64,000 nt of DNA from an uncultured Gammaproteobacteria bacterium (GCA_964349395.1 CAYGGA010000003.1:1424-65423), one strand, 5' to 3'. Positions 6,092 through 56,512 are shown, counted from the first letter of the stretch. Numbers and translations are program-made. Notes: generated by a model not told the origin, from the letters alone.

Positions 6092-6108
6092 GAAAGGAGG
6101 TGAATAAA

Positions 6109-6702: not shown

Positions 6703-6712
6703 GAGGGGAATA

Positions 6713-32350: not shown

Positions 32351-32368
32351 TCTTTTTATTTTGCCTCC

Positions 32369-35350: not shown

Positions 35351-36552
35351 GCGAAAACTTTTTCTTTCTGCCAAATTCTCATGGTATCTTGGTAGACTTT
35401 AACCAACCCATTTATATAACCAGACTCATTCATATTTTTCTCTACAAACTCTCGACCGTTTTTACCCATCTCTTTATTTACTTCAGGGTTATCCAAAAGA
35501 AAATTAATTCTCTCCACCAAACCTTCTACATCTAGCCTGTTTACCAAGTACCCATTAAAAGAGTCCTTCAGCCATTCCCCCACTCCTCCTGTATCAAAAC
35601 CGACTACACTCCGACTAAAGCTCATTGCTTCTGGACCAGTCTTACCATGAGGCTCAGGCCAAATGCTTGGGAAAACAAGAAGATCGCATTCATTATAGTA
35701 ATGCCACAGGTGACTCTGGCTTACTTCTCCAACAAATCTTACTTTTCTTCCTACCCCCAAGTCCTGTGCCAATTGTTTATACTCTTCGAGTTGTGGTCCA
35801 TCACCCACAATAGTAAGAGTACCCGAAATGCCTTTCATAGCTTCAATCGCGTACTGAGGACCTTTTTCCAGGGTCACTCGGCCAACAAATAGAATTTGGC
35901 GCTTATTTTTGGGAACTGTACTTCTGCCTGGTAATGTCACTGGGTGAGGCAAAATAACCACCTTTTTCAAATCAAAATCATTTATCTCTAGCTGGGTAGA
36001 CATAAATTTTGAAGCTATCAAGATTTTAGGTAATTTTTGATTTACCTCTAGTTCATAAAATTTGGCTTGGTATTTTTTAAGTAGCTTTATTGGTTTGTTG
36101 GTAGCGCAATGCTCTTTGTAAGCATTTACTAGACACCTAACTGAAAAAGGGATCGGACAAATTTGATTAGAATTGTACCAAGTTTTTGAAAACCCAGGAC
36201 AGTAAAGACGGTGGTCATGGACATGACGCATCGTTGGGGCAAGGGTCATAAATTCATTAACAAAATAACCATTTAAAATATTGTTAATCTGAATTATGTC
36301 GGGCTTCTCAACACTAATTAGTCTTTCAATTTCCCCAAGGACTTGGTCTTTATTTTTGGGAAATTCTTCTTCTAACCCAGGAATCTGGTAGGCGGTAAAA
36401 CCTTCTTTTTTTATCTTTTTTGGATCGGGTCCATCCCCATAGATGATAATAATCTCATGGCCTAACTTTTTTAGGGCCGCGGAGATTTGACGAATATAGA
36501 TTTCAGTGCCACCTTCATAAAAGAACTTGTCATTAACCTGAAAAATCCTCAT
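35347..36552 (-). CDS. Glycosyltransferase family 4
   Basis: SIWPEPHGKTGPEAMSFSRSVVGFDTGGVGEWLKD. Confidence 0.65.
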   Translation of the reverse strand: MRIFQVNDKFFYEGGTEIYIRQISAALKKLGHEIIIIYGDGPDPKKIKKEGFTAYQIPGLEEEFPKNKDQVLGEIERLISVEKPDIIQINNILNGYFVNEFMTLAPTMRHVHDHRLYCPGFSKTWYNSNQICPIPFSVRCLVNAYKEHCATNKPIKLLKKYQAKFYELEVNQKLPKILIASKFMSTQLEINDFDLKKVVILPHPVTLPGRSTVPKNKRQILFVGRVTLEKGPQYAIEAMKGISGTLTIVGDGPQLEEYKQLAQDLGVGRKVRFVGEVSQSHLWHYYNECDLLVFPSIWPEPHGKTGPEAMSFSRSVVGFDTGGVGEWLKDSFNGYLVNRLDVEGLVERINFLLDNPEVNKEMGKNGREFVEKNMNESGYINGLVKVYQDTMRIWQKEKVFA

Positions 36553-38403
36553 CTACTCCATTTTAGCATAATTGAATTGACAGCCTTTTCCCAAACCAGT
36601 GATAATAAGTCTAACTTGAAAAAACTTTTCCTATCCCCCACCTTTAAGTTTGGTTTTATCGCTGCCATAGTTTATCTGTTAATTGCAATCGTACTCACCT
36701 GGCCGCTAATATCAAAATTTACGACTCACATTCCTGGGGTGGATGAAGACTCCGCCACTCATATTTGGTATCTGTGGTGGTTTAAATGGGCTTTTGTAGA
36801 AGGCCACTCACCTCTTTTTAAAACTGACTGGATTTTTCATCCCCAGATTATTGACAGGATTTTTGATGTCCATACTTTTGTAAATGCAGCTATCTCCCTG
36901 CCTTTCCAATACCTAGTTGGCCTAATTGCTTCATCCAACCTCCTTTTCTATCTTAACTTCTTCTTAACCGGTTTGGGTATGTTTGCTTTGGTTAAAAAAT
37001 TAACAGACAACTATTGGTCAGCTTTTATCGCAGGTTTGATAGTGGTCTTTATGCCCTATACATGGGGACAGATCCTGGACAATCACACCAATCTTTACAC
37101 TATCTGGTTTATTCCTTTTTATTTACTTTTTTTACTGCGGACTCTAGGTGAGAAAGGTTGGAAAAACCCACTACTAGCTGGGCTATTTTTTGGACTGCAA
37201 GCTTTGAATGATTTAACCCTAACTACTTTCATGATTGCTGCGACTTTAATGATCGGCTTTTATTACTTTGTTTTCCAACCCGGTATTATCCGAACTACCA
37301 AACTAAATCTTAATTGGGAAACTATTAAAAGGTTATTACTTCTAGGCACTATTTTTACTTTGGTTTTTCTTCCCCTTTTGGTTCCTGTTTCCCAAGCGAT
37401 TATGGGTGGCCAAGATCCAGGATCGTCTTTGCATGACCAGCAAGTTTGGTCAGCTCAACCCCAAAATTTCCTAATCCCTTCCGGAAACAATCCATTTCTT
37501 AGAGATTTCTCCAGAACTCAAAATGTTAATGCTATTGAGGGTAGCATCTATCTAGGCTTTATTGCAGTTGTATTAGCCCTAATTGGAATCATTTACTACT
37601 TGGCCATCAACCGTTATCTTTCTAGACAAATTGGTTTATGGGTTTTCCTTTTTATTTCTTTTCTGATTCTGTCTCTAGGTCCTTGCGCTCATTATCTAGG
37701 AATAAATACCAATTTGTCTTTTTGCTCTGGAACTCCCCTGCCTTTTGTCTTCTTTCACAAATTACCTTTTATTGGCGGTATCCAAGAACCTATCCGGATG
37801 CAAATCTACACCATGATTTGCTTAGCAGTGCTAGCTGGGTTTGGAATTAAGGCTACTCTAACTAGGTTTAACTTTGCCACTAAAATACTTCTCACCTTGG
37901 GGATTTCTCTTTTAATTCTCTTTGAATATTACACGCCCTTACCTTTAACTGATTTAACTGCTCCCCCAATCTATAAAACCATTCAGGAGGACAGAAGTGA
38001 TTTTAGTGTTTTAAGTTTACCAGTAGGATGGAATAATCAATCTTTTAACACTGGTTTTTCTCCGATTGGGTCCTTGCAGTTTTTCCAGACTGCCCACGAA
38101 CATAAGTCTTTTAGAGCCACGGTTGCGCGAGTTCCTACCCAAAATATTCACTATTATCTGGATAAACCCTTGTTTAAATACCTCACTCAACCAGATTTGA
38201 GAATTCCTGACAAAGACGATCTAGATCCAGATCTGGCCCAAAAAACATTTAGCGACTTTCATATCAAATATATTGTAATGCATAAAAAGTACTATTTGCA
38301 GAAGAAGAAAAGTGCCGGACAAACCCAAGAGCTCATTGAAGGAGTTTTAAAAGCAGAAAAAATTCAAGAAGACAATGATATCGTTACTTATAAACTAAAG
38401 TAG
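36487..38403 (+). CDS. Polytopic membrane protein, GT-C-like novel family (paralog of 45468-47507 and 47554-49650)
   Basis: Loop after TM1 has GVDEDSATHIWYLWWFKWAF. A later block has MPYTWGQILDNHTNLYTIWFIPFY. About 12 TM helices plus a C-terminal soluble domain. The start is uncertain: the track ATG overlaps the divergent GT4 gene by 66 nt, and an in-frame TTG lies at 36616. Confidence 0.45.
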   Translation: MTNIDFSATFIKELVINLKNPHLLHFSIIELTAFSQTSDNKSNLKKLFLSPTFKFGFIAAIVYLLIAIVLTWPLISKFTTHIPGVDEDSATHIWYLWWFKWAFVEGHSPLFKTDWIFHPQIIDRIFDVHTFVNAAISLPFQYLVGLIASSNLLFYLNFFLTGLGMFALVKKLTDNYWSAFIAGLIVVFMPYTWGQILDNHTNLYTIWFIPFYLLFLLRTLGEKGWKNPLLAGLFFGLQALNDLTLTTFMIAATLMIGFYYFVFQPGIIRTTKLNLNWETIKRLLLLGTIFTLVFLPLLVPVSQAIMGGQDPGSSLHDQQVWSAQPQNFLIPSGNNPFLRDFSRTQNVNAIEGSIYLGFIAVVLALIGIIYYLAINRYLSRQIGLWVFLFISFLILSLGPCAHYLGINTNLSFCSGTPLPFVFFHKLPFIGGIQEPIRMQIYTMICLAVLAGFGIKATLTRFNFATKILLTLGISLLILFEYYTPLPLTDLTAPPIYKTIQEDRSDFSVLSLPVGWNNQSFNTGFSPIGSLQFFQTAHEHKSFRATVARVPTQNIHYYLDKPLFKYLTQPDLRIPDKDDLDPDLAQKTFSDFHIKYIVMHKKYYLQKKKSAGQTQELIEGVLKAEKIQEDNDIVTYKLK

Positions 38404-38423
38404 GGCCAAAGAAAACTTTGACC

Positions 38424-38663
38424 CTAGTCATCTCCCTCACTTCTTACCACTCGCTTCGCCGGATCGATCCTTCTGAAGATGTAAAAACAAGCCACCAGTG
38501 AGACCAATCCCCCAGTAAGACTTATTATGGAAACGACGTCTTCACTAGCGTCAAACACACCATAGCCAACCAACGAAATGGTTGCTACAGCTACCGTGGC
38601 GATTATGATGTTGCGCAAAATCCACCATAAAGATTGGAGCTCTTCTGCCAAGATTTTTTTCAT
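38424..38663 (-). CDS. Small (79 aa) two-TM membrane protein, unknown function
   Basis: Two hydrophobic helices (IIIATVAVATISLVGYGVF; IISLTGGLVSLVACFYIF). Stand-alone gene flanked by intergenic regions. Confidence 0.3.
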   Translation of the reverse strand: MKKILAEELQSLWWILRNIIIATVAVATISLVGYGVFDASEDVVSIISLTGGLVSLVACFYIFRRIDPAKRVVRSEGDD

Positions 38664-38720
38664 GTCTCATCCCCTTCTCTCGGACCAAATTATACTCCCT
38701 TCGCAATCCTGTTTCAACAA

Positions 38721-38744
38721 TACTAATATACTAGTATATTAGTA
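38721..38744. promoter_or_regulatory. 24-bp perfect palindrome TACTAATATACTAGTATATTAGTA
   Basis: Seen directly. It lies about 60 bp upstream of the small membrane-protein gene and about 65 bp downstream of the GT4 gene that ends at 38809. Confidence 0.4.
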
Positions 38745-38808
38745 TATCGAACTACCAAACATACTGGCATACTTGGTACAAACTTAGGTTAAGCTAATAA
38801 ATAAATGA

Positions 38809-39939
38809 TCACTTTTTAGGGACGAGATTTTGGTATATTTCCCAAGTTTTACTAGCGATTTTTTCCTGCGTGTAGTTATTTTTTACTCTTTCAAGTCCCT
38901 TTTTGCTAAAGTCCTGCCAAAGTTTTTTATTACTTATTAATTCCTCTATCTTTTTCCTTAAATCTTCACTGTCTTTTTCTCTAAAAACTGCCCCCGCTTC
39001 CCCAATCACTTCAGGAATAGCACCACTATTTGACCCTAGGGTAGGGACGCCAGCCGCCATTGATTCAATTAGAACATGACCAAATTGCTCTTTCCAAACC
39101 GGAGTAGTTTCTGAAGCCAAAACAAAAAGATCTAACACACTAAAGTAACTTGGCATATCAGAATGAGGCACAACTCCAGGAGCCGCAATCCTAGGATCTT
39201 CATTGGCAAGGTTTTGAATTTCATTAAGCATAGGTCCTGACCCAATAAAAAGTAAGGAAATATTTGCAATTTTAATCTTTTTAAAAGCTTCTAAAATAGT
39301 TCTGATTCCCTTTTGCTCCTCTAGCCTAGCAAAGCTTCCGATTACAAAACTTCTCAAACCAAGTTTCTTTTTAAGCTCATCAGCTCCTCTTTTTTTGAAA
39401 ACTTCTGGATCTACACCTAGTTGGGGAAGAACAGTGATCGGTTTCCTAAAACCACGCTTTTCTAAAATTTCTTTAGCCTCAGAATTTCCTGCAATCGCCC
39501 AATCAGCCAATTTTAGATTTATTTTTTCAATTAGCTGATACCATGGTCGGTGACGTCTATAAAGATTCTCCCAGCTAAAAAAAATAATTTTTTTCTTAAA
39601 CAATTTTCCAAACACTATAAATTCAAACAAACTTATACTCCAGGGCTCTTCCTCCACATGAATAATATCAGGATCAAAATCATGTATTAGCTTCAGGACT
39701 TTTAGTGGGGAGAAAAAAAAGCGGTCATTCTTCCCAGACCCAATGGCTGGAAACGACTTTATCAAGTATTTTGGGTCTGAGGTTTTCTCTAGTTGAGTGT
39801 CCCGCAAGGGTGCTTTCCAAGAAGTAGGGGCCAGTAAATTTATCTCTAAATCAGGTTTTTGCGCTAAAGCTTCTACTTTTTGCTGGTTAATTGCTACTAC
39901 GTAAGCATGAGAAATAAGCAAAATTTTAGTTTTCTTCAT
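38809..39939 (-). CDS. Glycosyltransferase family 4
   Basis: FGHVLIESMAAGVPTLGSNSGAIPEVIGEAGAVF. Confidence 0.7.
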   Translation of the reverse strand: MKKTKILLISHAYVVAINQQKVEALAQKPDLEINLLAPTSWKAPLRDTQLEKTSDPKYLIKSFPAIGSGKNDRFFFSPLKVLKLIHDFDPDIIHVEEEPWSISLFEFIVFGKLFKKKIIFFSWENLYRRHRPWYQLIEKINLKLADWAIAGNSEAKEILEKRGFRKPITVLPQLGVDPEVFKKRGADELKKKLGLRSFVIGSFARLEEQKGIRTILEAFKKIKIANISLLFIGSGPMLNEIQNLANEDPRIAAPGVVPHSDMPSYFSVLDLFVLASETTPVWKEQFGHVLIESMAAGVPTLGSNSGAIPEVIGEAGAVFREKDSEDLRKKIEELISNKKLWQDFSKKGLERVKNNYTQEKIASKTWEIYQNLVPKK

Positions 39940-41038
39940 TTAACTCCTCATAAACTTGGTAGGTCTCTTTTGCGGTTTTTCCCCAATCAAACTTCTCTGC
40001 TTGCGCCACTAGAGTTTTTTTCAGCCCCTTGAGTTCCTCGCTTTTTAAACCTAACAACCTCTTTACTTCCTGAGCGATCTCCTTCTCCTCTTGAGGGTCT
40101 ACTCCCACTAGAGTGTCACCTGCGATTTCCTCTAAACTAGTATTTTTGGAAATGACTGCGGGCAAACCACAGCTCATCGCCTCTAACACCGGCAGCCCAA
40201 ACCCTTCAAAAAGGGAAGGGTAGACTAACACGCTACTAAGGCTATAAAGTTGTATTAACTCTTTCTCGTTGAGAAAGCCCGCTTCAATAATATCGTCCTT
40301 AAGATTATAGAGTTGTATTAATTCTTTCTGACCGGGAGTAAATTCTGGGCCCACTTTAACAAAAATAAAAGTAACCTTCTCTTCTCTGAGGATTTTAAGG
40401 GTCTGAAAGATTTTCTCGAGATTTTTGTAGGGAAGATTATTACCCACATGTAATAGGACCGGCCTGGCTGGTAAATCTAGCTTGGCTTTTATTTCCCCCG
40501 AGTTCTCAACTTGTCTGAAAGCTTCATTTCTACCCAAATAAATCACTTTAATCTTTTTGGGTGATATATCTAACATTGACAATAAGTCCTTTTTGGTAGC
40601 TTCAGAATCCACAATTATGCACTTAACCTCTTTCAAATAACTAACACTTTTTTTAAATAGATTTAAAGAGAGGGGGTCTTTTTCTACGCGGGTCCCATCG
40701 GGCAAGAATTTCAGGGGTATTAAGTCGTGACACGTGACAACTGTTTTCTCATGGTCTAAAAACTGACTGACCTGGGCAAAACTGTGATCAGTAATATGAT
40801 TTACATTACCTTCATGCCTTTGAGCATAAAAAGGGTAGTAGTAAAAACGCGAAAGTTGGTAACGCCATCTTGGAGGCAAATAAGTTAGGGCCTTAGGAAT
40901 ACTTGGTTGAAAACTAATCAGGTCATCATCACTTTTTCTGATTTTATCTAAGTTTTTTCTTAATTCCACTCCATACCTCTCCATACTTAAAGAAGTCCAT
41001 TTTTGATCTATTAAATTTAAGAAAAGTGCAATTCTCAT
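39926..41038 (-). CDS. Glycosyltransferase family 4
   Basis: SLFEGFGLPVLEAMSCGLPAVISKNTSLEEIAGD. Contains an internal duplication (KELIQLYNL / KELIQLYSL). Confidence 0.7.
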   Translation of the reverse strand: MRIALFLNLIDQKWTSLSMERYGVELRKNLDKIRKSDDDLISFQPSIPKALTYLPPRWRYQLSRFYYYPFYAQRHEGNVNHITDHSFAQVSQFLDHEKTVVTCHDLIPLKFLPDGTRVEKDPLSLNLFKKSVSYLKEVKCIIVDSEATKKDLLSMLDISPKKIKVIYLGRNEAFRQVENSGEIKAKLDLPARPVLLHVGNNLPYKNLEKIFQTLKILREEKVTFIFVKVGPEFTPGQKELIQLYNLKDDIIEAGFLNEKELIQLYSLSSVLVYPSLFEGFGLPVLEAMSCGLPAVISKNTSLEEIAGDTLVGVDPQEEKEIAQEVKRLLGLKSEELKGLKKTLVAQAEKFDWGKTAKETYQVYEELNEEN

Positions 41039-41922
41039 TTTATGTCTTTTTGCTTCCTGGAAGCAGACAGAAGCCCCCGAGCAATATTGAAGTTTTCAAG
41101 TAGTCGAATAAAAGCGTAAGGGCGAGTCTTTCGCCTAGCTAAATCCTTCAGAAACTGGGTAGGCACGGCCAAAAAACGTGAGTAAATAACATCTCCAGTA
41201 AGAGGGGACTCATGTTTATTGACAAAATAGTAAGTTCCTACCCCCCGAACATAACTCTGGCGAATAAATCTTTTCAAACCGTAAGGTTGGTAATGATCGG
41301 CTTTTAAAGGGATGTAAAGAAGTTTATACCCCAAATCAGTAATTCGTTTTTTCAAATCGGCATCTTCTCCTGCAGGAACGGGAAAATTCTCATCAAACCC
41401 ATTTACTTCATTTAGAATTTTTTTCTTAAAAGCCAGATTATTGGTTCCCCCCGCCGGGTTTTCAAACCTGCCTACTCGTTCTTGGTTATCTGCCTGGTAG
41501 ATGTCATGACTCACAAACCATTCATACTGCGCAAATTTATTGTTTTTAAAAACTTCCTCAGGTGCCTTCATATACCCACCAACACCAACTACTTCTGGAT
41601 GCCTCTTAAACCCATCCAGCATCTTCTCCACCCAATCTGAAGGGAGTTTCATATCATCATCAGTAAAAGCAATCAGGTCAGTTTTGGCTTCTTTTATCCC
41701 TCTATTTCTAGCCTTAGCCGGTCCTGCATTCTCTTGCCAGAAGTAGTCAATACTCTTTAGTTTTCTGGTGTAATCCCTGACTATCTCCTCGCCCACATGA
41801 GAGCCATCCTCGACCACAACCAATGCGAAGTCTTTTTCTGTCTGCTCGGCTAAAGAGTCTAGGACCCGTCTGAGTCCATCCGGACGATTGTAGGTGGGTA
41901 TCACAACACTAATCTTTGGCAT
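41035..41922 (-). CDS. Glycosyltransferase family 2
   Basis: ISVVIPTYNRPDGLRRVLDSLAEQT...VVEDGSH. Confidence 0.7.
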   Translation of the reverse strand: MPKISVVIPTYNRPDGLRRVLDSLAEQTEKDFALVVVEDGSHVGEEIVRDYTRKLKSIDYFWQENAGPAKARNRGIKEAKTDLIAFTDDDMKLPSDWVEKMLDGFKRHPEVVGVGGYMKAPEEVFKNNKFAQYEWFVSHDIYQADNQERVGRFENPAGGTNNLAFKKKILNEVNGFDENFPVPAGEDADLKKRITDLGYKLLYIPLKADHYQPYGLKRFIRQSYVRGVGTYYFVNKHESPLTGDVIYSRFLAVPTQFLKDLARRKTRPYAFIRLLENFNIARGLLSASRKQKDIK

Positions 41923-43363
41923 CTTTTTCCTTTATAATACTCACAAATAATTTTATATCTTCCTTAATTTGCTGTCTCTCTAGTGCTAGCAAAGCCAGGA
42001 CGTAGGCTAACCCAATGATACTTGTTTTCGCTACTAGTCTCCAAAAGATTGGTACCTCTTCCCATGATACTAAGTAATTTGTTAAACAATAAACTAAAGA
42101 AGTTAGTCCGACGGCCACAATTGTGGGTGCAAAGATACCTTTATAATCAATTTTCACAAATTTATTGGCGTAAAAGTAGGCTAAAACTACTCCCACAACC
42201 ATAACTAGATTCAAACTTAAAGCCGCTCCTCTTTCCTGATATAAAACCACTAAAATCGGAGTTAGAATTAACAAAATTACTGCCTGAATTGTTAGATACT
42301 TTGACAATATTTGCGGTTTTCCAATCGCGGTCAAAAACGCCCCAGTATCATCAAAAATCGGACGCAACATAGAGAAGACCAAAAGTAGTTTAAACACTGG
42401 CACCATGGGCAGCCATTTTCCCCCCAAGAAAAACATTACAAAGTCCTCAGCGATTAAAAATAACCACAAGGAAAAGGGGGCAGACACGCGGAAAATATTT
42501 CTCAGAACTAAATTAAATGCAATTCCTAATTTTTCTTTTTCAGTTTGCAGTTTAGCGTATGTGGGCAGCGCAACTCGAGAAACCACCGCCGTCACCAAAC
42601 CAGTGGGTAGTTGGGCAAACTGGAAAGCTTTCACATAAAAACCTAAGACCGCGGCACTTATAAAAGTTCCTAAAACAAAGTCATTGTATTGGAAAAGAAT
42701 AAAAGTGGTCAGACCACCAATAAAAAGGAAGAAACCAAATTTAAAATACCATTTTATCATTGCTTGATTTATAGAAAACCCGATTTTCCAGCCCGAGAAT
42801 ATTAGTAAGCCAAGGAAAGTAAATAAAATACCGCTCACGTTCAGAGCGACCAGACTCCAAAGTCCCCACCCCAAAAAGGCTAAAGTAATTCCTATGATAG
42901 AAGACATAACTAAAGAGAGTACATCAATGATGGTGGTAATCTTGAAATTCAGTTCTTTTTCTAGAAAGACTCGGGGCGTACTACTAGCTGCCTTTAAAGG
43001 CATAAAAAAAGCTAGGATTAAAAGGACTAATATAACGTCTTGGGAATAGAATTTTGTTAGGAAGGGTACACTAATCAAGACTAAAAGTAGGTTTAAAAGG
43101 GCCAAAAGAACCTGAAGCGTAAAATGAACTTTAAAAGCTTCTTCAAGGTCATCTTGGCGGTGAATCAAAGCATAGTCTAATCCAAATTCCCTGACTCGTC
43201 CAAAAAATGAAAGAAAGAAATTTCCCAAGGCAATAATTCCGAAATGGTCCGGGATGAGTAGTCGAGCCATTATGACTGAAGAGATAATTCCCACCCCTAG
43301 TGAGACATAAGTGTTGAGGGACGCAAAAAGAGTACTCCTCACTGCTTGTCGTCCGACCTTCAT
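41909..43363 (-). CDS. wzx: Wzx-type oligosaccharide flippase (MOP/polysaccharide biosynthesis protein family)
   Basis: About 12-14 TM helices. N-terminal basic and TM pattern typical of the PST family (QAVRSTLFASLNTYVSLGVGIISSVIMARLL). Confidence 0.6.
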   Translation of the reverse strand: MKVGRQAVRSTLFASLNTYVSLGVGIISSVIMARLLIPDHFGIIALGNFFLSFFGRVREFGLDYALIHRQDDLEEAFKVHFTLQVLLALLNLLLVLISVPFLTKFYSQDVILVLLILAFFMPLKAASSTPRVFLEKELNFKITTIIDVLSLVMSSIIGITLAFLGWGLWSLVALNVSGILFTFLGLLIFSGWKIGFSINQAMIKWYFKFGFFLFIGGLTTFILFQYNDFVLGTFISAAVLGFYVKAFQFAQLPTGLVTAVVSRVALPTYAKLQTEKEKLGIAFNLVLRNIFRVSAPFSLWLFLIAEDFVMFFLGGKWLPMVPVFKLLLVFSMLRPIFDDTGAFLTAIGKPQILSKYLTIQAVILLILTPILVVLYQERGAALSLNLVMVVGVVLAYFYANKFVKIDYKGIFAPTIVAVGLTSLVYCLTNYLVSWEEVPIFWRLVAKTSIIGLAYVLALLALERQQIKEDIKLFVSIIKEKDAKD

Positions 43364-44466
43364 CTAGTTTTTCCAATCTCTTCGTAAGTTTTAATGAGAT
43401 TTCTTTCATAATTTTCCCAAGTGAATTTTTCGATTTTTTCCCGGGCTTTTTTGGAGTAAGCAACAAGAAGATCTCGGTTGTTATAAAACTTCAGCAAAGC
43501 CTGCTTCAAGCTCTCAACACTCCCCGTCTCCACAATAAACCCTTCCTGTCCATCTGCCACCAAACTACCACTATTGTGGGTAACAATCAAAGGTAAGCCC
43601 GCCGCCATGGCTTCATAAGTCACTAGAGCACTACCCTCCTCGATCGATGGAAAAACAAATAAATCACTTTCTTGGTAGTACTGCGTGAGATTATTGGAGT
43701 AATCGATGAATCGAATCTTCCTTAAGTTGTAGTTTTTGATTAAGTCCTTAAAGTCAGGGAAAATAGGTCCAATCAAAAGTAGCTCACTATCTTTTAAGTC
43801 CAGTTCCTGCCATGCTTGCAGGAGGTAGGGCAATCCTTTGCGAATGCCGACTTGACCCACAAAAATAGCCCGGAAGAGATTATCTTTTTTGTTTTTTTGC
43901 GGGGTAAATTTTTTAATATCCACCCCAAAATGAATCAAGCGGAGTTTGACTTTTGGATACCCGTTTTCTAAAAAACTATCATAAGCGAATTGAGAAGGGA
44001 CAAAGACAAAGTCAGCTTCTAAGTATTCCTGAACAGATTTTTTTAGAGTAAGAGGATTTACCGGTGTAAAATTTACTTTAAATTTTTTCATCTCCCTCTT
44101 TAAAAGATTATTTTGGGTAACAATATGACTAGAGGCTCTCTCAATGATTATCTGGGCACCTTTTTTCTTCGCTTGACGTAGGGATAACAGAGAGAAATTG
44201 TTCCATCCGTGGAAGATATTAGCCTGAGGCACTTGACGCGAGACAAGAAAATCAAAAAGATTATCTTTTACCAGATAACTTGGGATTCTATTTAACCACG
44301 GATAGGTCTCAACTTCCGAGTCTTTGAGAAAAGTGGTGTTATTGCCCGTCAAAAATGCTTTTTTAAGGTATCCGTGACCACTCAGAGCCTGAAGAGCGTG
44401 GGACGCGACATTACCAATCCCCCCTCCCGGTACTTTTGCGCCCACGGAGTAAGTAACTTTCATCAA
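43360..44466 (-). CDS. Glycosyltransferase family 4
   Basis: SIEEGSALVTYEAMAAGLPLIVTHNSGSLVADGQEGFIV. Confidence 0.7.
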   Translation of the reverse strand: MMKVTYSVGAKVPGGGIGNVASHALQALSGHGYLKKAFLTGNNTTFLKDSEVETYPWLNRIPSYLVKDNLFDFLVSRQVPQANIFHGWNNFSLLSLRQAKKKGAQIIIERASSHIVTQNNLLKREMKKFKVNFTPVNPLTLKKSVQEYLEADFVFVPSQFAYDSFLENGYPKVKLRLIHFGVDIKKFTPQKNKKDNLFRAIFVGQVGIRKGLPYLLQAWQELDLKDSELLLIGPIFPDFKDLIKNYNLRKIRFIDYSNNLTQYYQESDLFVFPSIEEGSALVTYEAMAAGLPLIVTHNSGSLVADGQEGFIVETGSVESLKQALLKFYNNRDLLVAYSKKAREKIEKFTWENYERNLIKTYEEIGKTR

Positions 44467-45422
44467 GTTCTCCAGTAAGGGTCCTTTTTGGCCGCAAGCG
44501 TTTTGGTGATACCCACCTCAGGACTATTTTTTGGTTCCCAACCCATATCTCTCTTGATCTTGGAGACATCAGAGATGTAATCCCCAGTCTCTAGCTTTAA
44601 TTGGTTGGTGTCCCACGGAACTTGGGTAACATGCCCTTTGCCGACCACTGCAACGATAGTTTCAGCCATCTGCAGTAAACTTACACCCCTGCCCAAGCCA
44701 ATGTTATACACTTGACCATCACTTTTTTTGTCCTCACCTAACTGCAAAAACAGATCGATTAAATCATCAACATACAAATAATCTCTCTTTTGCTCACCTT
44801 TTCCAAAAACTTTCAGCTCCTCATCCATTGTCGCTAAGTCAAAGAAATAATTGATGATATTGTACCCAAGGTTTGTCATCTGTAGGTGAGGTCCGTAGGG
44901 ATTTGAGATTCTTAAAACCGTGCTTCGAAGACCAAAGTTATCAAAATAAGCCTGGTGATATTTCTCCGCGGTTAGTTTATGAATGCCGTAAATACTGGTT
45001 GGATGCATGGGGGCATCTTCACTAACAGGGAGTTTGTCGACCTTACCAAATTCTAATCTGGAACCTGGAAAAATTATCTTGATATTGGGGTTTACTTTCC
45101 TGGCTGCTTCTAAAACAGTTAGGGTGCCTAAACAATTTACCTCTAAATCCAGTTCTGGATCTTTCATAGAGTTCGCCGAGCCACTTTTTCCCGCTAGATT
45201 AAAGAGGACATCCTGGTCCTGAAGTATTCTGGCGATTTTCTCGGAGTCACGGATATCTCCTGGTTGGTAATTAATTTTTTGGAGAAGGGAGGGAAGGGGA
45301 ATTTCTTGTTTTGGATCCAAGACTGAGATTATACTTCCTTCTTTAATTAATCTAGCAATTAGATTTAAACCGATAAAACCAAAACCGCCCAAGACCGCAA
45401 CTTTTTTACCCTCATAGTTCAT
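44463..45422 (-). CDS. NAD-dependent epimerase/dehydratase (extended SDR; UDP-sugar 4-epimerase-like)
   Basis: VAVLGGFGFIGLNL Rossmann motif. YxxxK region (IYGIHKLTAEKY). Confidence 0.7.
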   Translation of the reverse strand: MNYEGKKVAVLGGFGFIGLNLIARLIKEGSIISVLDPKQEIPLPSLLQKINYQPGDIRDSEKIARILQDQDVLFNLAGKSGSANSMKDPELDLEVNCLGTLTVLEAARKVNPNIKIIFPGSRLEFGKVDKLPVSEDAPMHPTSIYGIHKLTAEKYHQAYFDNFGLRSTVLRISNPYGPHLQMTNLGYNIINYFFDLATMDEELKVFGKGEQKRDYLYVDDLIDLFLQLGEDKKSDGQVYNIGLGRGVSLLQMAETIVAVVGKGHVTQVPWDTNQLKLETGDYISDVSKIKRDMGWEPKNSPEVGITKTLAAKKDPYWRT

Positions 45423-45467
45423 CTATGGTGAAATTTTATCATTTAAGGGGTAGTTAGTCTACTTGAC

Positions 45468-47507
45468 TTACTCATGAGGTACCAAAGTAAAGTTGTCTAT
45501 TTGGACCTCACTACGAGCACGATCATTGGTAAAAACCATTTCGTTCTGGCCAGGCTTGACCAAAACCACATCCCCGCTTGTGACACGGATCCCATTCCAT
45601 ATGGCTTCCCGAATTCCCCCAAGGGAGATTTGGTAATTAAGTTTGGCTTTAGTTTCTTCACCTAAAGCATTGTAAACAAAGACCACATTATCCTCCTCGC
45701 TCCAAATCCAATTTACCTCGTACAACCAAGTGTAAGTTGGTTTTGTACCGTCAAGGTAGACTACTTTACCAACTTTCGTAGTGGGTTGATAAACGATGGC
45801 ATTAGCAAAACGAGCAACTTCTTTGGCCCAATATTGAGTTTCCCCCAAGGGTGATTCACCATATTCTTTGTAATAAAAGTCATTGATGGGGTGAGGTTTG
45901 TCGTATAAATACTGGGTGTGGAAAACGACATAATCCACCCCGCTCGCTTTTAATTTCAACCATGTTTGCACAGAAGATAGTTCACTAATTTCTTTCAGAG
46001 GGATGACTTCATTTTGGAAAAGACCATTGTAAAGATTTTTTTTGTGGTATCTTTGCCAGATTAGAGAATTAGCCGTGTCAAAATCAACGGGGTACTCGGC
46101 AATCACTGTCTTGTCTGGGGTATTTTTTACCCAGTCGTAAACTGGTTGGTTGGCCAAAGTGGTTGTTTGTCCCCAACCAAAAGGCAAAAATTCTATAAAT
46201 ATCAGAACTGAAAGTAACCCTAAGACTACCTTTTTCTTTAGGTCACTTTTCAGCATGGTCGTCAAACCCAAACTCCCAATTATCAGAACTAGTAGTAAGA
46301 CCATAATACCCAAACGGGCATACACTCTAAAGAAAGGTACGAGTGGGTAAATCCATGTGCTAGGGAAATCAATCTTTATACCCTTGAAGATAACAAAAGG
46401 CGGCGCACTGATGAGCAGGACTACCCCCATTGAGATGAGTATCACCAATGTTAGGTGGCGATAATTTCTTCTTTTAATTAGGTAGTACAGGCTGACGAGA
46501 AAAACCACCACGGTTGTAATTCCCAAAAAGGCTATTCTTTCGGGCAAAAAAGCGCTAATGGTTTTGAAGTCTACGCTTTGAGCTCGAATCCAACCTAGTA
46601 AATTGTTGGACACTTCCCCCAAGAAAGGGTGGTTGGGAGCTGGTAGTAAAAAATCCCAGGGCCGCATGGAGAGAGATAAAAGGTCATTTAAGGGCCGGCT
46701 CGCTAAACTACCCACGGTCCCAAAACCACTTTTCTGAAAAAAGACCCGGAAAAGCAGCGGGGAGGTCACCAATAGCACCACCCCACTAGCTACCAGCCCA
46801 CTCTTAAAAAAAGACCAAGAAAAATAATTTTTCCTTCTTAGCAAGCTTGTTAAGAGTTGACCAAGGAAAAAACCAAAAGTTAGAAAAACTAAAAAGAGTC
46901 CGTAGTAGAGACTAGTAAAAAAGGCAAAGAGGAAGCTTAGCCCCAAAAACAAACCACTTCTCAGAGTTCGGTTTATATCAAAATATAGTAGAGCCAGAGT
47001 ATACAAGGGCAGGGTATAGAGTAACCCCAGATTTATATGCACAAAACTTTGCCAGAAGTGGTAGGGTGCAAAACTAAAAACAAACCCCGCAAAAAGACTA
47101 ACTAACTTATCTTTGGTCAAATAATAAATTAGATAGTACATACTCACACCAGAGAACACAAAACCCAAAATAGTGATCAGATTAAAAGCAATCAGGCTAT
47201 TGGTCAGGTAAGTTAACACAAGATAAGGCAAAGCCCAAGCCATTTCTGGCGGCAGGTCGGATAGATTAACACCCAAGGGATAACGGATAGAAGTGGTGAT
47301 ATTCTGAGACAAATCCACCCCGATATCCTTTAGAACCCCAAAGTACCAGATGGTAGAGAAGTTATCAGAAGTGAAACCAAAAACAGTAGTGTTTAGCCTC
47401 AGTACTAAAGGAAAAGTTAAAATAACAGTAAGTAGCAGGTAAAAACCGCTCACTTGGAGAAGATGTTTGATTGATTTTTTGGATGGCATTATTCTGAGCC
47501 CGTTCAA
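45468..47507 (-). CDS. Polytopic membrane protein, GT-C-like novel family (tandem paralog A)
   Basis: YGFTSDNFSTIWYFGVL after TM1, then FAPYHFWQSFVHINLG, WDFLLPAPNHPFLGEVS and KTISAFLPERIAFLG. About 13 TM helices plus a C-terminal about 230-aa soluble domain. Confidence 0.5.
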   Translation of the reverse strand: MNGLRIMPSKKSIKHLLQVSGFYLLLTVILTFPLVLRLNTTVFGFTSDNFSTIWYFGVLKDIGVDLSQNITTSIRYPLGVNLSDLPPEMAWALPYLVLTYLTNSLIAFNLITILGFVFSGVSMYYLIYYLTKDKLVSLFAGFVFSFAPYHFWQSFVHINLGLLYTLPLYTLALLYFDINRTLRSGLFLGLSFLFAFFTSLYYGLFLVFLTFGFFLGQLLTSLLRRKNYFSWSFFKSGLVASGVVLLVTSPLLFRVFFQKSGFGTVGSLASRPLNDLLSLSMRPWDFLLPAPNHPFLGEVSNNLLGWIRAQSVDFKTISAFLPERIAFLGITTVVVFLVSLYYLIKRRNYRHLTLVILISMGVVLLISAPPFVIFKGIKIDFPSTWIYPLVPFFRVYARLGIMVLLLVLIIGSLGLTTMLKSDLKKKVVLGLLSVLIFIEFLPFGWGQTTTLANQPVYDWVKNTPDKTVIAEYPVDFDTANSLIWQRYHKKNLYNGLFQNEVIPLKEISELSSVQTWLKLKASGVDYVVFHTQYLYDKPHPINDFYYKEYGESPLGETQYWAKEVARFANAIVYQPTTKVGKVVYLDGTKPTYTWLYEVNWIWSEEDNVVFVYNALGEETKAKLNYQISLGGIREAIWNGIRVTSGDVVLVKPGQNEMVFTNDRARSEVQIDNFTLVPHE

Positions 47508-47553
47508 CCCCGTTCAGAGCGAAGAACAATTACTCCTCTCATACCGCGTCAAC

Positions 47554-49650
47554 TTACTTAGCGGTAGTTGATGTTACTTTAGCAATATTGATATTTTTTA
47601 GTTTTACTCTGCAGTCTAGACAGCTAGAATCCACTCTTAGGACATTAAGCCCCGGACGTAGTTCCAAGACTCTTTTGTCCAAATCATTAGTCTCAACACC
47701 ATTGTAAAACTTTCTACTAACTTTTGCGCTGTCGCCTTCTAGCTCATAATTAAAACTAAGTCTCTCCGTGGCTGTCCCAAAATTAAAGAGGTAAATCACA
47801 TTCTCTTGTTTAGTTAATTCCAAACTATTCTCCCCCACCCAAACCAAATTTTCTTGACGACTGGGATTGTAGGCTAGAAATTTGGAGTTTGTAAGGGTCA
47901 GTTCATAAACTCGAGCATCAGAATACTCTTGTTGGAGTTTTAGCCAGGGATACTCCCGAACATCGACCTTCACACCATCTTTTAGCTTGATAGTTGGTGG
48001 CGGTGCGAAACGTGTAAAGTAGAGCTCATCAAAAGGATGGATATGGTCATAAAGATAACTGGTATGAAAAATTACATACTTTACTCCTAGGGAGCTAAGG
48101 ATATCGGCATGCTCTTTTGACTCTAGATTACCGACCTGATCCCAAAGTTGGTGATACTCATTGGAAAACATATTAAAGAGCCTTTTTTGGTGGTAACGCT
48201 GCCAAATCAAGGCGTCTGCAAGGTCAAATCGAGCCGGGTACTCGGCCACAATGACATCCCCAAGTTGACCTTTGAGCCACTGATAATACTCAGGTGGCTT
48301 ATCGAGGGCCACCACCTTGGACGGTGGAAAAGGTAAAAACTCCACTAACACCACCCCAACAATAAGAATAACTAAAGCTAGTTTTGCCTTAGGGAATTTT
48401 TTTAAAACCTCTACCACCCCAAGAGAAGCAAGCAGCGAGACAAAGAGGAGTATTACCACTCCAAATCGCACTAAGACGCGCAATGGAGGTAAAATAAGAA
48501 AGATAAGATAAGAAGGTAAATAGATAGTTATCCCTTTGACCACCAGAACAGGAGGTAAAGCAAAAAATGTTACCAGAAGAAGTAGGCTGGTGATCAGAAT
48601 TGTTTTTTTCCGTCTTTCAGGGTTCTTTAAACCATAAATTATTCCTAGAAGAGCCAGCAAGCTAGGCAAAATTCCAAGATAGACTACCCGCTCTGGCAAA
48701 AAGGCACTAATAGTTTTGTAATCATTGCTCAGAGTAGTAATTTTTTTATAAACACTCTTAGATATCTCCCCGAAAAGGGGGTGGTCAGGAGCTGGTAAAA
48801 AAAGATCCCAAGGACGTAGAGACAAGGACAAAAAATCATTGAGGGTACGGTTACTAACTGAGCCAGAAGCCAGCGTAAAAGTAGTCTTAAGACTTGAATA
48901 AAAATCTAAAATTGAGGGGCCCATTAAAACTACCACTAGTAGGCCACTTACCAGCAAAGCCTTAATTCTTTGACCAGTAAAATAGTTTTCGTTTTTGAAA
49001 AGAGCCCCCAAAAAATTGACCAGGAAAAAACTAACCCCCACTAAAGCCATAAACAGTCCATAGTAAAAAGTGTTTAAAAAGACCAGGATAAAACTTAAAG
49101 CAAGCAGCACTCCGGCTAATACACTAGGCTTATCGTTTAGGTAAAATAAAGCCAGAAGAAAAAGCGGTAGTGTATAGATAAAAGTTAAAGAAATATGAGC
49201 ATATCCTTGCCAAAAATGGTAAGGTGCAAAAGTAAAAATCAAACCCGCAATAAAAGCACCAGCCTTGTTTTTAAACAAATAGTAAGATAGAAAGTACATA
49301 GTCATGCCAGCTAAAGGGAAAGACAACAAGAAAAGAGTATTTAGCGCTAGTAATTCATTTCCCAAAGTGCTTAGTATTCTGGCGGATAAGACCCAAAAAT
49401 TTTCCATTGCTAAGGCCCCATATTGAATTCCAAACGGAGCATTAATAAAAGGAATAAAATCAGCCTGTAAATTGTGGGAGGAGCTAAATTTCAACCACCA
49501 GAAGTGCCAAGCGGCACTAAAATTGTCTGAGGTGTACCCATAGAGTGAGGAGCTAATTTTAAAAACCAGGGGGTAAGTAAAAACAACGGTTACAAAAAGA
49601 TAGCCAAGTAAAGCTAAGATTTCAGTACGGATTTTTTTGAGCAGCATCAT
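47554..49650 (-). CDS. Polytopic membrane protein, GT-C-like novel family (tandem paralog B)
   Basis: YGYTSDNFSAAWHFWWL, FAPYHFWQGYAHISLT, WDLFLPAPDHPLFGEIS and KTISAFLPERVVYLG are collinear with 45468-47507. Confidence 0.5.
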   Translation of the reverse strand: MMLLKKIRTEILALLGYLFVTVVFTYPLVFKISSSLYGYTSDNFSAAWHFWWLKFSSSHNLQADFIPFINAPFGIQYGALAMENFWVLSARILSTLGNELLALNTLFLLSFPLAGMTMYFLSYYLFKNKAGAFIAGLIFTFAPYHFWQGYAHISLTFIYTLPLFLLALFYLNDKPSVLAGVLLALSFILVFLNTFYYGLFMALVGVSFFLVNFLGALFKNENYFTGQRIKALLVSGLLVVVLMGPSILDFYSSLKTTFTLASGSVSNRTLNDFLSLSLRPWDLFLPAPDHPLFGEISKSVYKKITTLSNDYKTISAFLPERVVYLGILPSLLALLGIIYGLKNPERRKKTILITSLLLLVTFFALPPVLVVKGITIYLPSYLIFLILPPLRVLVRFGVVILLFVSLLASLGVVEVLKKFPKAKLALVILIVGVVLVEFLPFPPSKVVALDKPPEYYQWLKGQLGDVIVAEYPARFDLADALIWQRYHQKRLFNMFSNEYHQLWDQVGNLESKEHADILSSLGVKYVIFHTSYLYDHIHPFDELYFTRFAPPPTIKLKDGVKVDVREYPWLKLQQEYSDARVYELTLTNSKFLAYNPSRQENLVWVGENSLELTKQENVIYLFNFGTATERLSFNYELEGDSAKVSRKFYNGVETNDLDKRVLELRPGLNVLRVDSSCLDCRVKLKNINIAKVTSTTAK

Positions 49651-50420
49651 GTTTTTTTGCCTAAAACGATAAAACTTCCGCCAAACTTGTTTAGAACAGG
49701 AGTTTTCTCGATTACTTTTTCTATTTTACTCCAAAAATTTTTCCTTTGTTTAAAGAAGGGTTGGTTTTTAGGGATAAACCCAAGACCAAAGACTTTAACG
49801 CTACTAAATTTCGTTTTCAAAGATTTGGTGATATTCCAAGGATAAATAATGGTCTCATTGGCTGACAGGTCTCGAGTTTCTCGCCACCTCTTCCCCAATG
49901 GTAAAAGCCTCTCTGGGGAGTTCTGTAGCCACCACTTAAACATAATTGGATTTAAACCATTTGGTTCTAGGACATAATAAAGTCCACCTTTTTTTAACAC
50001 CCGGAAAACTTCAGCCGTTACTTGGTTTAAACTCTCGGGCGGAAAATGATGCAGAGAGTAGGTTACAATTACTAAATCAAAACTATTCTCTTTAAAAGGT
50101 AGTCGGTGGGCATCTCCTTGCAAATACGTGGCTTTTATTTTTTCCTTATACGCCCGTCTTTTCGCATCAGCAACTAACTGCGCCATTAGATCCAACCCCG
50201 TATACTCGATCCCACTTTTTTTGATCAGCTCTACACTAAATTGGCCCCCACCACAAGCAATCTCCAGAACATTGTCCCCTTCACCTAGATTGGTTCTACT
50301 GATTAGATCTTGGACGTAGTGAGCAATACTATCTTGATCTAGCTGGTCTTGGGACTCGAGTCGATACCAATCATTTCTTTTAAAGTGTTCTAATTCTTTT
50401 TTTAGATCTTGGGTCCTCAT
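49647..50420 (-). CDS. Class I SAM-dependent methyltransferase
   Basis: Motif I VLEIACGGGQFS. Post-I acidic residue. Motif LKKGGLYYV. Confidence 0.65.
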   Translation of the reverse strand: MRTQDLKKELEHFKRNDWYRLESQDQLDQDSIAHYVQDLISRTNLGEGDNVLEIACGGGQFSVELIKKSGIEYTGLDLMAQLVADAKRRAYKEKIKATYLQGDAHRLPFKENSFDLVIVTYSLHHFPPESLNQVTAEVFRVLKKGGLYYVLEPNGLNPIMFKWWLQNSPERLLPLGKRWRETRDLSANETIIYPWNITKSLKTKFSSVKVFGLGFIPKNQPFFKQRKNFWSKIEKVIEKTPVLNKFGGSFIVLGKKT

Positions 50421-54030: not shown

Positions 54031-54049
54031 ACGGAAAGTATATCCAAAT

Positions 54050-54862
54050 TTACCTTTTCTGTCTAGAAAAAAGACTATCAACCAACCCTAGAAAGCCAGC
54101 GGCAAACTCGGTACTTTTCAAAACAAATAAACCCACTGTTTTGCCAGGGTTTTTTAAAAGTCTGGCTGGGCTTTTAAAAAAGGCTGCTCTCAAGGGAGTA
54201 ACTTGGGAGTATGTAAAATTTCTTTTGGCTAGATAGTTTCTTATTTGTCTACCATAGTAAAATTTCTTCTTGGCGGTTTTAAGAAGCCCTAGGCTCCCCT
54301 CGTTGTGCAAAATCAACGCGTGAATTCTGTCTATTTTTACTCCGGATGATTTGATACGGTTGGCTAAATCCCAATCTTCCCCCGCCACCAACTTTTCATC
54401 ATAACCTCCAACTTTTTCAAAAATCTTTTTTTCGATAAATCTAGGCGCCTCCAAATCAGTTTCGCCAATATAGAAACTTCTTTCAAATGCTTTGACCTCA
54501 GACCAAAACCCAACTCCAAAGGATTTCTCCGGAATCGACAATGCTTTAACATCTGGTTTTTGGCTCACCAAGTCACAAGATTCAGCAATCACATCTTTTG
54601 TAAGTTCCATATCGGCGTCCACAAACAGCAAGTAATCACCCTGGGCATAAGTTGCCCCAAAGTTTCTCTGGGCACTTCTCTCTGGGCCATGATTAAACAC
54701 TGCTGTGGTGTATTTTTTGGCAATCGCAACGGTATTATCGGTTGAGTTTCGATCAACGATAATGATTTCCTCAGGCGAGCGTGATTGGTTATTAATCGAC
54801 TTTAAGCAATTTTCCAAAGTCTCCGCCGCATTTCTGGTACTCAAAATTACGGTAACCTTCAC
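54050..54862 (-). CDS. Glycosyltransferase family 2
   Basis: KVTVILSTRNAAETLENCL...IIIVDRNSTDNT and the DADME (DxD) motif. Confidence 0.7.
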   Translation of the reverse strand: MKVTVILSTRNAAETLENCLKSINNQSRSPEEIIIVDRNSTDNTVAIAKKYTTAVFNHGPERSAQRNFGATYAQGDYLLFVDADMELTKDVIAESCDLVSQKPDVKALSIPEKSFGVGFWSEVKAFERSFYIGETDLEAPRFIEKKIFEKVGGYDEKLVAGEDWDLANRIKSSGVKIDRIHALILHNEGSLGLLKTAKKKFYYGRQIRNYLAKRNFTYSQVTPLRAAFFKSPARLLKNPGKTVGLFVLKSTEFAAGFLGLVDSLFSRQKR

Positions 54863-56465: not shown

Positions 56466-56512
56466 AGGCGCACGTGCGCCAGATTTTTCGTTTATTTGAT
56501 CCACTAAAAAGC

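Follow-up and report, generated by a model that had tools for sequence, protein, structure and literature searches.

In a window of 64,000 nucleotides deposited under the name of an uncultured Gammaproteobacteria bacterium (GCA_964349395.1, CAYGGA010000003.1:1424-65423), whose host is probably a member of the Candidate Phyla Radiation (CPR, Patescibacteria), three genes designated A, B and C encode homologous polytopic membrane proteins for which structure models predict a GT-C(A) fold. The three proteins represent new members of the known GT-C class of glycosyltransferases (GTs) and not a new kind of system. The reading favoured here, to which we assign a probability of about 0.55, is that they act as extracytoplasmic GT-C(A) glycosyltransferases that use lipid-linked, i.e. 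polyprenyl-phosphate (polyprenyl-P), sugars to modify a glycan exported by a Wzx flippase. The respective gene models, with lengths in amino acids (aa), are as follows:

36487-38403, plus strand: gene A, predicted A-type GT-C-fold membrane glycosyltransferase; open reading frame (ORF) of 638 aa, likely gene 36577-38403 with 608 aa; membrane domain plus C-terminal alpha/beta domain, no beta-sandwich
45468-47507, minus strand: gene B, predicted B/C-type GT-C-fold glycosyltransferase; ORF of 679 aa, matched by the hidden Markov model (HMM) of the B/C family with an E-value of 1.5e-232
47554-49650, minus strand: gene C, predicted B/C-type GT-C-fold glycosyltransferase; 698 aa

Translation of gene A probably starts at the TTG codon at 36577, and a public gene call with the same start and length (P0038, on an NCBI/ENA contig of 70 kb) is 100% identical to A. 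The start of gene B is probably the ATG codon at 47489, yielding a protein of 673 aa, since an 86% ortholog of B begins at this position. Pairwise comparison of B and C yielded 35% identity over the full length (692 columns, E 2e-127), and A shares 26% identity with B over 484 aa (E 1e-17) and with C over 355 aa (E 3e-15). Subfamily alignments were compiled from 23 B/C-type sequences (A1) and 34 A-type sequences (A2). A comparison of the two family profiles resulted in a match of 100% probability (E 1e-78, 539 columns) that spans the membrane domain completely, together with the first C-terminal domain, and both subfamily HMMs match A, B and C alone among all ORFs of the window with at least 300 aa. 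By sequence comparison, the three proteins form one homologous set in two subfamilies, far beyond chance, which bears out the three related polytopic proteins of the initial annotation. The soluble domain that had been proposed to follow the membrane domain in each of them is likewise seen with AlphaFold models.

AlphaFold2 models of C (pLDDT 84.2, pTM 0.84) and A (pLDDT 90.7, pTM 0.91) were built with the family alignments and compared with the PDB by means of Foldseek. With a threshold of E <= 1e-3 this search yielded 26 matches for C and 27 for A, all of them GT-C enzymes with TM-scores of up to 0.53, and the alignments run nearly full length with TM-scores of about 0.5. The matches of C include STT3 (8b6l_I, E 7e-11, TM-score 0.50, 731 aligned columns), AglB, DPY19, PglB, AftD, AftA, ArnT and EmbA/B, whereas the list for A is headed by DPY19 (E 6e-8) and includes STT3, AglB, PglB, ArnT, AftA, ALG12 and Pmt4. 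Transporters of the major facilitator superfamily (MFS), the kind of match that would have spoken for a transport function, appeared at E > 0.07 with probabilities of 0.07-0.25 and TM-scores of about 0.1. Neither single-sequence searches nor profile searches (both family alignments) found a meaningful match in the PDB. The GT-C-like features noted in the initial annotation are accordingly borne out by confident models and their fold matches. The count of 12-13 transmembrane helices given there holds approximately, as the model of C contains about 11 long membrane helices plus interfacial ones and a crude hydropathy count gave 9-13.

The anatomy of the family was derived from protein C, for which the following segments, together with the codons of the acidic residue in all three genes, are of particular relevance:

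48337-49650, minus strand: membrane domain of C, residues 1-438, with PYH 143-145, H152, the loop 256-326, R391/R395 and E437
48016-48336, minus strand: predicted extracytoplasmic alpha/beta domain of C, residues 439-545, common to A
47557-48015, minus strand: predicted all-beta C-terminal domain of C, residues 546-698, found in B and C but lacking in A
49525-49527, minus strand: Asp42 codon of C (GAC, motif YTSDNFS), acidic in 142 of 144 homologs
47364-47366, minus strand: Asp48 codon of B (motif FTSDNFS), equivalent of D42 in C
36748-36750, plus strand: Asp88 codon of A (GAC; D58 in the 608-aa protein), putative catalytic acid/base, aligned with D42 of C

The N-terminus of A, B and C is predicted to be cytoplasmic, as it is rich in Lys and Arg (positive-inside rule). 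In C, the first transmembrane helix comprises about residues 8-30 and is followed by an outside loop 1 with helices 42-58 and 84-96, the first of which has D42 at its N-terminus in the model, and by about ten more transmembrane helices. The residues P143-Y-H145 and H152 lie in a short outside segment, a long outside loop (256-326), disordered in part, has LPER with E320 at its end, the arginines R391 and R395 (RVLVR) precede the last two transmembrane helices, and E437 is located at the outer end of the last one. In the alpha/beta domain, Y456, W458, E470-Y471-P472, Q484, H487 and H529 are near-invariant. The beta domain yielded weak Foldseek matches to carbohydrate-binding modules (CBMs) of the CBM35 and CBM6 types (E 0.14-0.23; probability 0.90-0.96 for CBM35 and 0.25 for CBM6) and, judged from the model, is possibly such a module.

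Conservation was assessed in a set of 144 sequences made up of B, C and 142 representatives with a mutual identity of no more than 50%. The position of D42 is occupied by Asp in 126 and by Glu in 16 of these sequences, that of E320 by Glu in 131 and Asp in 4, and that of E437 by Glu in 127 and Asp in 16; R395 is present in all 144 sequences, R391 in 141, H487 in 140 and Q484 in 139. The first outside loop after the first transmembrane helix carries an Asp in each of the three proteins (D88 of A in ORF numbering, D48 of B and D42 of C), and these residues are mutually aligned; D88 is invariant in the 34 A-type sequences. Further equivalents in A are R437 (for R395), E480 and Q534..H537, with a Gln at the position of R391. 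The acidic residue that had been noticed behind the first helix is thus present in all three proteins and conserved among their homologs. From this pattern, D42, E320, R395, E437 and the Y-P...Q..H cluster are probably active-site or substrate-binding candidates. In the structurally related DPY19, a protein with 13 transmembrane helices, long external loops EL1 and EL5 and a C-terminal 'luminal dome', the catalytic Glu71 resides in EL1 and Dol-P-Man serves as donor; the core of the dome is structurally conserved in oligosaccharyltransferase (OST), Emb and AftD (PMC10154233). D42 of C sits in outside loop 1, the counterpart of the loop with Glu71.

The genetic environment of A, B and C provides candidates for the remaining components of such a pathway. 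Almost the whole window downstream of the RecO gene (14-790) represents a glycan-synthesis super-cluster of about 60 kb. Genes B and C are part of a co-directional array of 25 kb (38.8-64 kb) that comprises two Wzx, eight GT4 and five GT2 genes, one of the latter DPMS-like, and in the order GT4, GT4, methyltransferase, C, B, epimerase, GT4, Wzx, GT2, GT4, GT4 the end of this array is met by the convergent gene A. The features relevant to export and donor supply are:

41909-43363, minus strand: Wzx-type (MOP) flippase of the B/C array (Polysacc_synt_3, E 1e-59), at the same position in the loci L003, L007 and L015
62323-63600: second MOP flippase gene, adjoining the GT2 gene 61538-62326
61538-62326, minus strand: DPMS/GtrB/ArnC-like GT2 of the polyprenyl-phosphate sugar synthase type, putative donor supplier for B and C
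29976-30659, minus strand: second DPMS/GtrB-like GT2, 6 kb from A, possible donor supplier for A; L007 has a 58% ortholog close to its A-type gene
13771-14520 and 22429-23109, minus strand: the other two small DPMS-like GT2, mutually similar to 29976-30659 and 61538-62326

The four small GT2 proteins have 226-262 aa and 0-1 transmembrane helices, and their joint profile matches GtrB (5ekp, E 2e-33), DPMS (5mlz, E 6e-31) and ArnC (E 3e-30) in the catalytic and interface regions. Under the favoured reading, the cytoplasmic GT4 and GT2 enzymes of the cluster would assemble a lipid-linked glycan that would be exported by the Wzx flippase, and A, B and C would each attach a different sugar or linkage to this glycan at the outer face of the membrane. 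As donors they would use polyprenyl-P sugars that the cluster's DPMS/GtrB-like GT2 enzymes synthesise and a MOP-type flippase carries across the membrane, and the extra beta domain of B and C may hold the glycan acceptor. Three-component systems of this kind, in which a synthase of the polyprenyl-P sugar cooperates with a flippase (SMR or MATE/MOP) and a GT-C protein, have been described (PMC8035078, PMC5836110), and their logic has been extended to MATE/MOP flippases and CBM-bearing GT-C proteins (PMC11127046). The beta domain of B and C speaks for a glycan as acceptor, as do the F5/8 type C and ILEI domains of relatives, which are of carbohydrate-binding type.

Other genomes have retained this gene module. 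The window, L003 (GCA_964360905.1) and L007 (GCA_964643435.1) share the order GT4, B/C-type gene(s), in part an epimerase gene, GT4, Wzx, GT2, GT4, GT4 and a convergent A-type gene, with orthologs of 31-53% identity gene by gene in L003 and L007, and part of this order is found in L015, a metagenome contig of 193 kb. Altogether, ten distinct loci with B/C-type and non-ILEI A-type genes were identified, all of them inside multi-GT glycan-assembly operons with Wzx. Since the set of one or two B/C-type genes and a convergent A-type gene is kept in other genomes, A, B and C are non-redundant. The co-occurrence with Dpm1-like GT2 genes that had been suggested as a check was found as well: besides the four copies in the super-cluster, orthologs of the GT2 gene 61538-62326 are located two genes upstream of the B/C-type gene in Ca. 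Woykebacteria (L002/L013/L014, 57% identity) and within the same array as the B/C-type genes in L015 (46%), and in L007 two DPMS-like GT2 genes lie near the A-type gene.

Several observations weigh against the favoured reading. No clearly DPMS-like GT2 gene was detected within 10 kb in L003, L006, L009 and L010, and a search of the window for GtrA or SMR-type flippases yielded none and, apart from the 79-aa ORF at 38424-38663 (two hydrophobic segments, no family), no candidate. Oligosaccharyltransferases, whose donors are pyrophosphate (PP)-linked oligosaccharides and not P-monosaccharides, rank highest among the structural matches, and the B/C array is devoid of a recognisable Wzy polymerase, leaving room for a polymerase or ligase role. 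Moreover, the roles of the conserved residues were deduced solely from conservation and secondary-structure position. A GT2 gene beside a flippase and a GT-C gene in L009 was considered as a further DPMS-like candidate and is not clearly of this type (46 bits vs 331-368 bits for the four proteins of the window).

A tentative alternative is that the polyprenyl-PP-oligosaccharide flipped by Wzx is itself the donor of at least one of A, B and C, which would transfer it en bloc with chemistry resembling that of STT3/PglB, either as a polymerase (Wzy equivalent) or as a ligase that passes the completed glycan to its final acceptor, be it a lipid, the cell wall or a protein. This would agree with the fold comparison, in which STT3, AglB and PglB provide the top matches of C and the majority of those of A, aligned nearly full length including the C-terminal domain, and with the gene content of the 25-kb array, which encodes no Wzy_C, EpsG or WaaL-type protein and in which B and C are the sole unassigned polytopic proteins; Wzy-type genes are equally lacking in L003, L007, L009 and L015, and an OST-like metal site could be made up of the conserved D, E, E and H residues. 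On the other hand, a regular-expression search detected the WWD[YW]G motif in none of A, B and C (no WWD or WWE, with WW pairs only in outside loop 1), and the family profiles retrieved no STT3, PglB, AglB or other full-length OST from the PDB, the single hit being the non-significant 3vgp fragment (putative oligosaccharyltransferase, E 0.78). The weak sequence links of the family point instead to users of P-monosaccharides (YfhO, PMT_2), DPMS-like GT2 genes co-occur in three lineages taken as CPR (the window, L002/L013/L014 and L015), and the role of polymerase or ligase could be served by a Wzy_C-PMT fusion protein encoded at 14549-17095. It is also rather unlikely that the set of B/C-type and A-type genes as a whole replaces the missing Wzy polymerase/ligase in reduced-genome CPR bacteria, by STT3-like polymerisation or en bloc transfer of PP-oligosaccharides; if so, B and C might function as a heteromer in the manner of EmbA-EmbB or Pmt1-Pmt2, and the set, combined with the GT4 genes, the MOP flippase, the DPMS-like GT2 genes and the six other GT-C-type genes of the window, would constitute a bacterial glycan assembly line with the logic of the eukaryotic N-glycan pathway of the endoplasmic reticulum. 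The general prediction of a lipid-linked-sugar-dependent GT-C transferase or polymerase, as proposed in the initial annotation, is supported by the fold, the acidic residue and the co-location with GT2 genes.

A protein acceptor appears improbable. The presence of DPY19, PMT and OST among the fold matches would suit enzymes that glycosylate secreted or surface proteins in the manner of PMT, TMEM260, DPY19 or PglB, as would the ILEI-fused A-type relatives that adjoin a TMEM260_N/PMT_2 protein outside polysaccharide clusters, given that human TMEM260 is a protein O-mannosyltransferase (PMC10214176), and the secreted-type proteins encoded at 6.1-9.0 kb of the window. All ten of the loci with B/C-type and non-ILEI A-type genes, however, are multi-GT operons with Wzx, the accessory C-terminal domains of the family are of carbohydrate-binding types, and neither an acceptor-peptide motif nor a conserved neighbouring substrate gene was found. 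Hardly to be expected are non-catalytic scaffolds with a GT-C fold, as in PIG-U, or transporters. These would draw on a weak match (E 0.059) to chain 9ub7_B, presumably a non-catalytic, GT-C-like subunit of the glycosylphosphatidylinositol transamidase, and on MFS matches at E 0.07-0.3, but TM-scores of these matches amount to 0.1-0.25 and the transporter probabilities to 0.07-0.25. Furthermore, D42, R391, R395, E437, Q484 and H487 are strictly conserved across the 144 homologs, which argues for an active site, and all of them are kept in A, B and C with the exception of the Gln of A at the position of R391.

The four sequence blocks that had been quoted as common to the three proteins, YG[FY]TSDNFS, FAPYHFWQ, WD[FL]LPAP[ND]HP and KTISAFLPER, proved to be motifs of the B/C subfamily and are confined to B and C. 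Protein A contains diverged equivalents of three of them, namely PGVDEDSATHIWY, FMPYTWGQ and PQNFLIPSGNNPF, and no KTISAFLPER block. Similarly, the view that B and C are clearly recent paralogs is wrong, as they share 35% identity with each other vs 82-86% with orthologs elsewhere, i.e. 86% for the B ortholog P0005 and 82% for the C ortholog P0001, which are probably located on one contig (best contigs both of 9661 bases). A neighbour-joining tree places the B clade as sister to the C clade, and each of the two holds orthologs from other genomes. The tandem pair is old, because B and C each have closer orthologs in other genomes than each other. Tandem pairs of separate origin were detected in L003 (671 and 715 aa), L004 (732 and 699 aa) and L015 (604 and 576 aa); the pair in L004 is followed by a GT2 gene and two genes for EamA proteins of 124 aa, which we take to be ArnE/F-like.

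With respect to known protein families, none of A, B and C exceeded a curated Pfam or NCBIfam threshold. No match to YfhO (PF09586, gathering score 28.5 bits) was obtained for the three proteins even at E <= 1, and weak YfhO matches were found in 4 of the 23 B/C-type and 1 of the 34 A-type relatives, with 25.4 bits, below the gathering score, for a paralog in L003 (profile positions 78-238 of 835). The match of A to PMT_2 (18.7 bits, E 0.002) remained below the threshold of 26.1 bits, weak PMT_2 matches occurred in 11 of the 34 A-type relatives, and B and C matched neither PMT nor PMT_2 (PF02366, PF13231). Wzy_C (PF04932) is absent from A, B and C. The sub-threshold Pfam matches of the relatives are restricted to YfhO, PMT_2, PTPS_related, DUF2079 and DUF6541, and these families as well as DUF6311 belong to the GT-C clan. 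Precomputed DUF6311 (PF19830) tags are attached to relatives of both subfamilies, including P0009, P0013, P0016, P0042, P0068, others and the L003 paralogs, and not to P0038, which equals A, whereas exact copies of B and C were absent from the search hits; our Pfam scan gave no DUF6311 match even for a tagged protein, and the model is probably not contained in the scanned Pfam copy. Searches of the literature library for DUF6311 and for GT-C proteins in the Candidate Phyla Radiation retrieved no papers. With respect to the comparison with YfhO/ArnT-like proteins made in the initial annotation, ArnT is among the fold matches and some relatives have weak YfhO links, and A, B and C themselves have no YfhO match.

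A word-indexed search yielded 37 relatives for C and 81 for A. When the B/C profile was run with HMMER against 1.84 billion cluster representatives, 24,709 matches were obtained at E <= 1e-3, of which 13,752 reached E <= 1e-10 and 4,680 E <= 1e-30; the best 150 matches are all below E 1e-109, most of them over nearly the whole profile. By this measure of sequence similarity the family comprises at least 24,709 cluster representatives and is not rare. The term 'novel family' goes too far in view of the size of the family and the DUF6311 tags or sub-threshold YfhO, PMT_2 or PTPS_related tags of some relatives, and a large, uncharacterised family, of which A, B and C pass no curated threshold, is the fitting description. 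Close B/C-type motifs were found in 1 of 185,579 species genomes, that of Ca. Woykebacteria, a member of the Microgenomates/CPR group; this genome scan used 12 closer B/C sequences, and a metagenome scan added four loci. Source names of more distant homologs mention Chloroflexales, Anaerolineae and Caldilineae, and those of ten homologs read 'hypothetical protein' throughout or are absent.

The C-terminal accessory domains of relatives include F5/8 type C and ILEI, the latter a sugar-binding domain. In L011 (3022-9225) and L012 (7042-12736), a conserved unit of three genes, for a methyltransferase, an A-type GT-C protein with ILEI domain (about 930 aa) and a TMEM260_N/PMT_2 GT-C protein, is located outside polysaccharide clusters, an architecture that recalls eukaryotic O-mannosylation components. 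In a distant B/C-type clade (P0018-P0021), a DUF3108 gene directly follows the GT-C gene in L006 (11865-12650) and L009 (11824-12522) and lies one gene further downstream in L010 (14366-15154), and the relative P0027 (968 aa) is a GT-C protein fused to DUF3108. Diderm hosts are suggested for the clade in L009 and L010 because of a nearby Glyco_transf_9 (heptosyltransferase-type) gene in both loci. On Ca. Woykebacteria-like contigs (L013 6245-8509, L014 11934-13751 and 419-2569, all on the minus strand), a gene convergent with the B/C-type gene encodes a protein of 754 aa, or 605 aa on the shorter contig, that matches the A-type HMM weakly (E 5e-25 and 7e-17) and may represent a more divergent third subfamily in an equally convergent arrangement.

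A recurrent neighbour of the family is a methyltransferase gene, represented in the window by the following feature:

49647-50420, minus strand: class I S-adenosylmethionine-dependent methyltransferase, translationally coupled to gene C, its stop codon overlapping the ATG codon of C (ATGA)

A methyltransferase gene is likewise located directly upstream of the family member in L003 (9229-9996), L011 (3022-3933) and L012 (7042-7974), and it overlaps the start of the family member in the window and in L011; the four loci span both subfamilies. An orthology of these methyltransferases was not clearly borne out, as they share generic Rossmann-core similarity only, and the adjacency may be a coincidence.

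In total, the window encodes one PglC-type phosphoglycosyltransferase (2762-3412), 13 GT4 proteins, eight GT2 proteins (four ordinary and four small), two MOP (Wzx) flippases, six GT-C-type proteins in addition to A, B and C, and sugar-modifying enzymes, and no tRNA gene was found in it. Four donor synthases thus stand beside nine or ten GT-C-type proteins. The minus-strand gene 14549-17095 specifies the only Wzy_C protein of the window, an unusual ligase/polymerase-GT-C fusion of 848 aa with about 18 hydrophobic segments, in which an N-terminal Wzy_C domain (E 4e-17) is joined to a C-terminal PMT/PMT_2 domain (E 2e-15). The minus-strand gene 23106-25034 encodes an orphan polytopic protein of 642 aa with about 13 hydrophobic segments and no Pfam match; it is located between two DUF2079 genes and directly upstream of the DPMS-like GT2 gene 22429-23109, with overlapping ends. 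This protein was rejected as a member of the family (hhalign probability 9%) and might be another GT-C protein. Other genes of the super-cluster encode a DUF4012 protein (869-2758), the DUF2079 paralogs (20917-22398 and 25091-26569), PMT-type proteins (19376-20920 and 27742-29064) and an LPG_synthase_TM protein (12809-13774). Enzymes for unusual sugars are encoded at 31304-34000 and 52783-59901 and include a thiamine pyrophosphate-dependent enzyme (32369-34000), an ATP-grasp protein, a HAD hydrolase, two DegT aminotransferases, two GFO/IDH/MocA oxidoreductases and a hexapeptide acyltransferase; synteny with L007 was seen for the ATP-grasp, HAD, DPMS-like GT2, GFO and PMT genes. Within the glycan cluster and on the opposite (plus) strand, the region 6100-9012 encodes a camelysin-like Peptidase_M73, a Lamin-tail-domain and an RTX-repeat protein, secreted-type proteins that are possible glycoprotein substrates. 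The gap of 400 bp between A and the GT4 gene at 38809 contains a minus-strand ORF of 79 aa (38424-38663) with two hydrophobic segments and no family assignment, for which the public contig L001 also has a gene call.

The analysis assigns a predicted fold, an orientation, candidate active-site residues and a conserved gene module to a family of at least 24,700 clusters that is labelled 'hypothetical' or as a DUF. A characterised member would probably found a new GT-C family in the CAZy database and would help to explain how surface glycans are built in the CPR/Patescibacteria and perhaps in the Chloroflexota, most of which are uncultured. If the host belongs to the CPR, about 60 kb of a genome of probably about 1 Mb are devoted to glycan synthesis, which would be a very large investment.

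In comparison with known systems, A, B and C resemble STT3, AglB and PglB (GT66) in the membrane domain, the long outside loop 1 with an acidic residue, the late flexible loop ending in a conserved Glu and the C-terminal domain, whereas GT66 proteins differ by the WWDYG motif and the lack of detectable sequence similarity, and a glycan acceptor is suggested by the genetic context of A, B and C. DPY19 (GT98), the top match of A, shares the loop-1 acid, the long early and late loops and the C-terminal dome with the layout of A, B and C, but is a eukaryotic enzyme with a peptide Trp as acceptor and only 10% identity to A. The O-antigen side-chain GT-C proteins of the GT136 (ORF12 of Citrobacter youngae) or Gtr type are similar by their described logic: a lipid-P-sugar synthase, a MATE/MOP flippase and a GT-C protein with a backbone-binding C-terminal CBM (PMC11127046) have their counterparts in the DPMS-like GT2 proteins, the MOP flippases and the beta domain of B and C, although the genes of the window are not organised as a compact three-gene module. 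YfhO/GtlB-type proteins (PF09586) of the Gram-positive three-component systems are likewise polytopic GT-C proteins whose active site is extracytoplasmic and whose outside domain is large; their substrate is a surface glycopolymer, and their donor is a C55-P-sugar from a GtrB/CsbB-type GT2. YfhO is, besides PMT_2, the only Pfam family named as touched by some of the relatives, while the motifs, the C-terminal domain and the taxa differ (probably CPR, with some homologs annotated as Chloroflexota). Finally, the mycobacterial EmbA/B/C, AftA and AftD proteins are significant fold matches with a GT-C(A) fold, extracytoplasmic carbohydrate-binding domains and polyprenyl-P-sugar donors, but they are much larger (TM-scores of 0.2-0.48), show no sequence similarity and belong to another phylum. 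In the Emb/Aft system several paralogs serve a single glycan, and EmbA-EmbB is a heteromer of paralogs.

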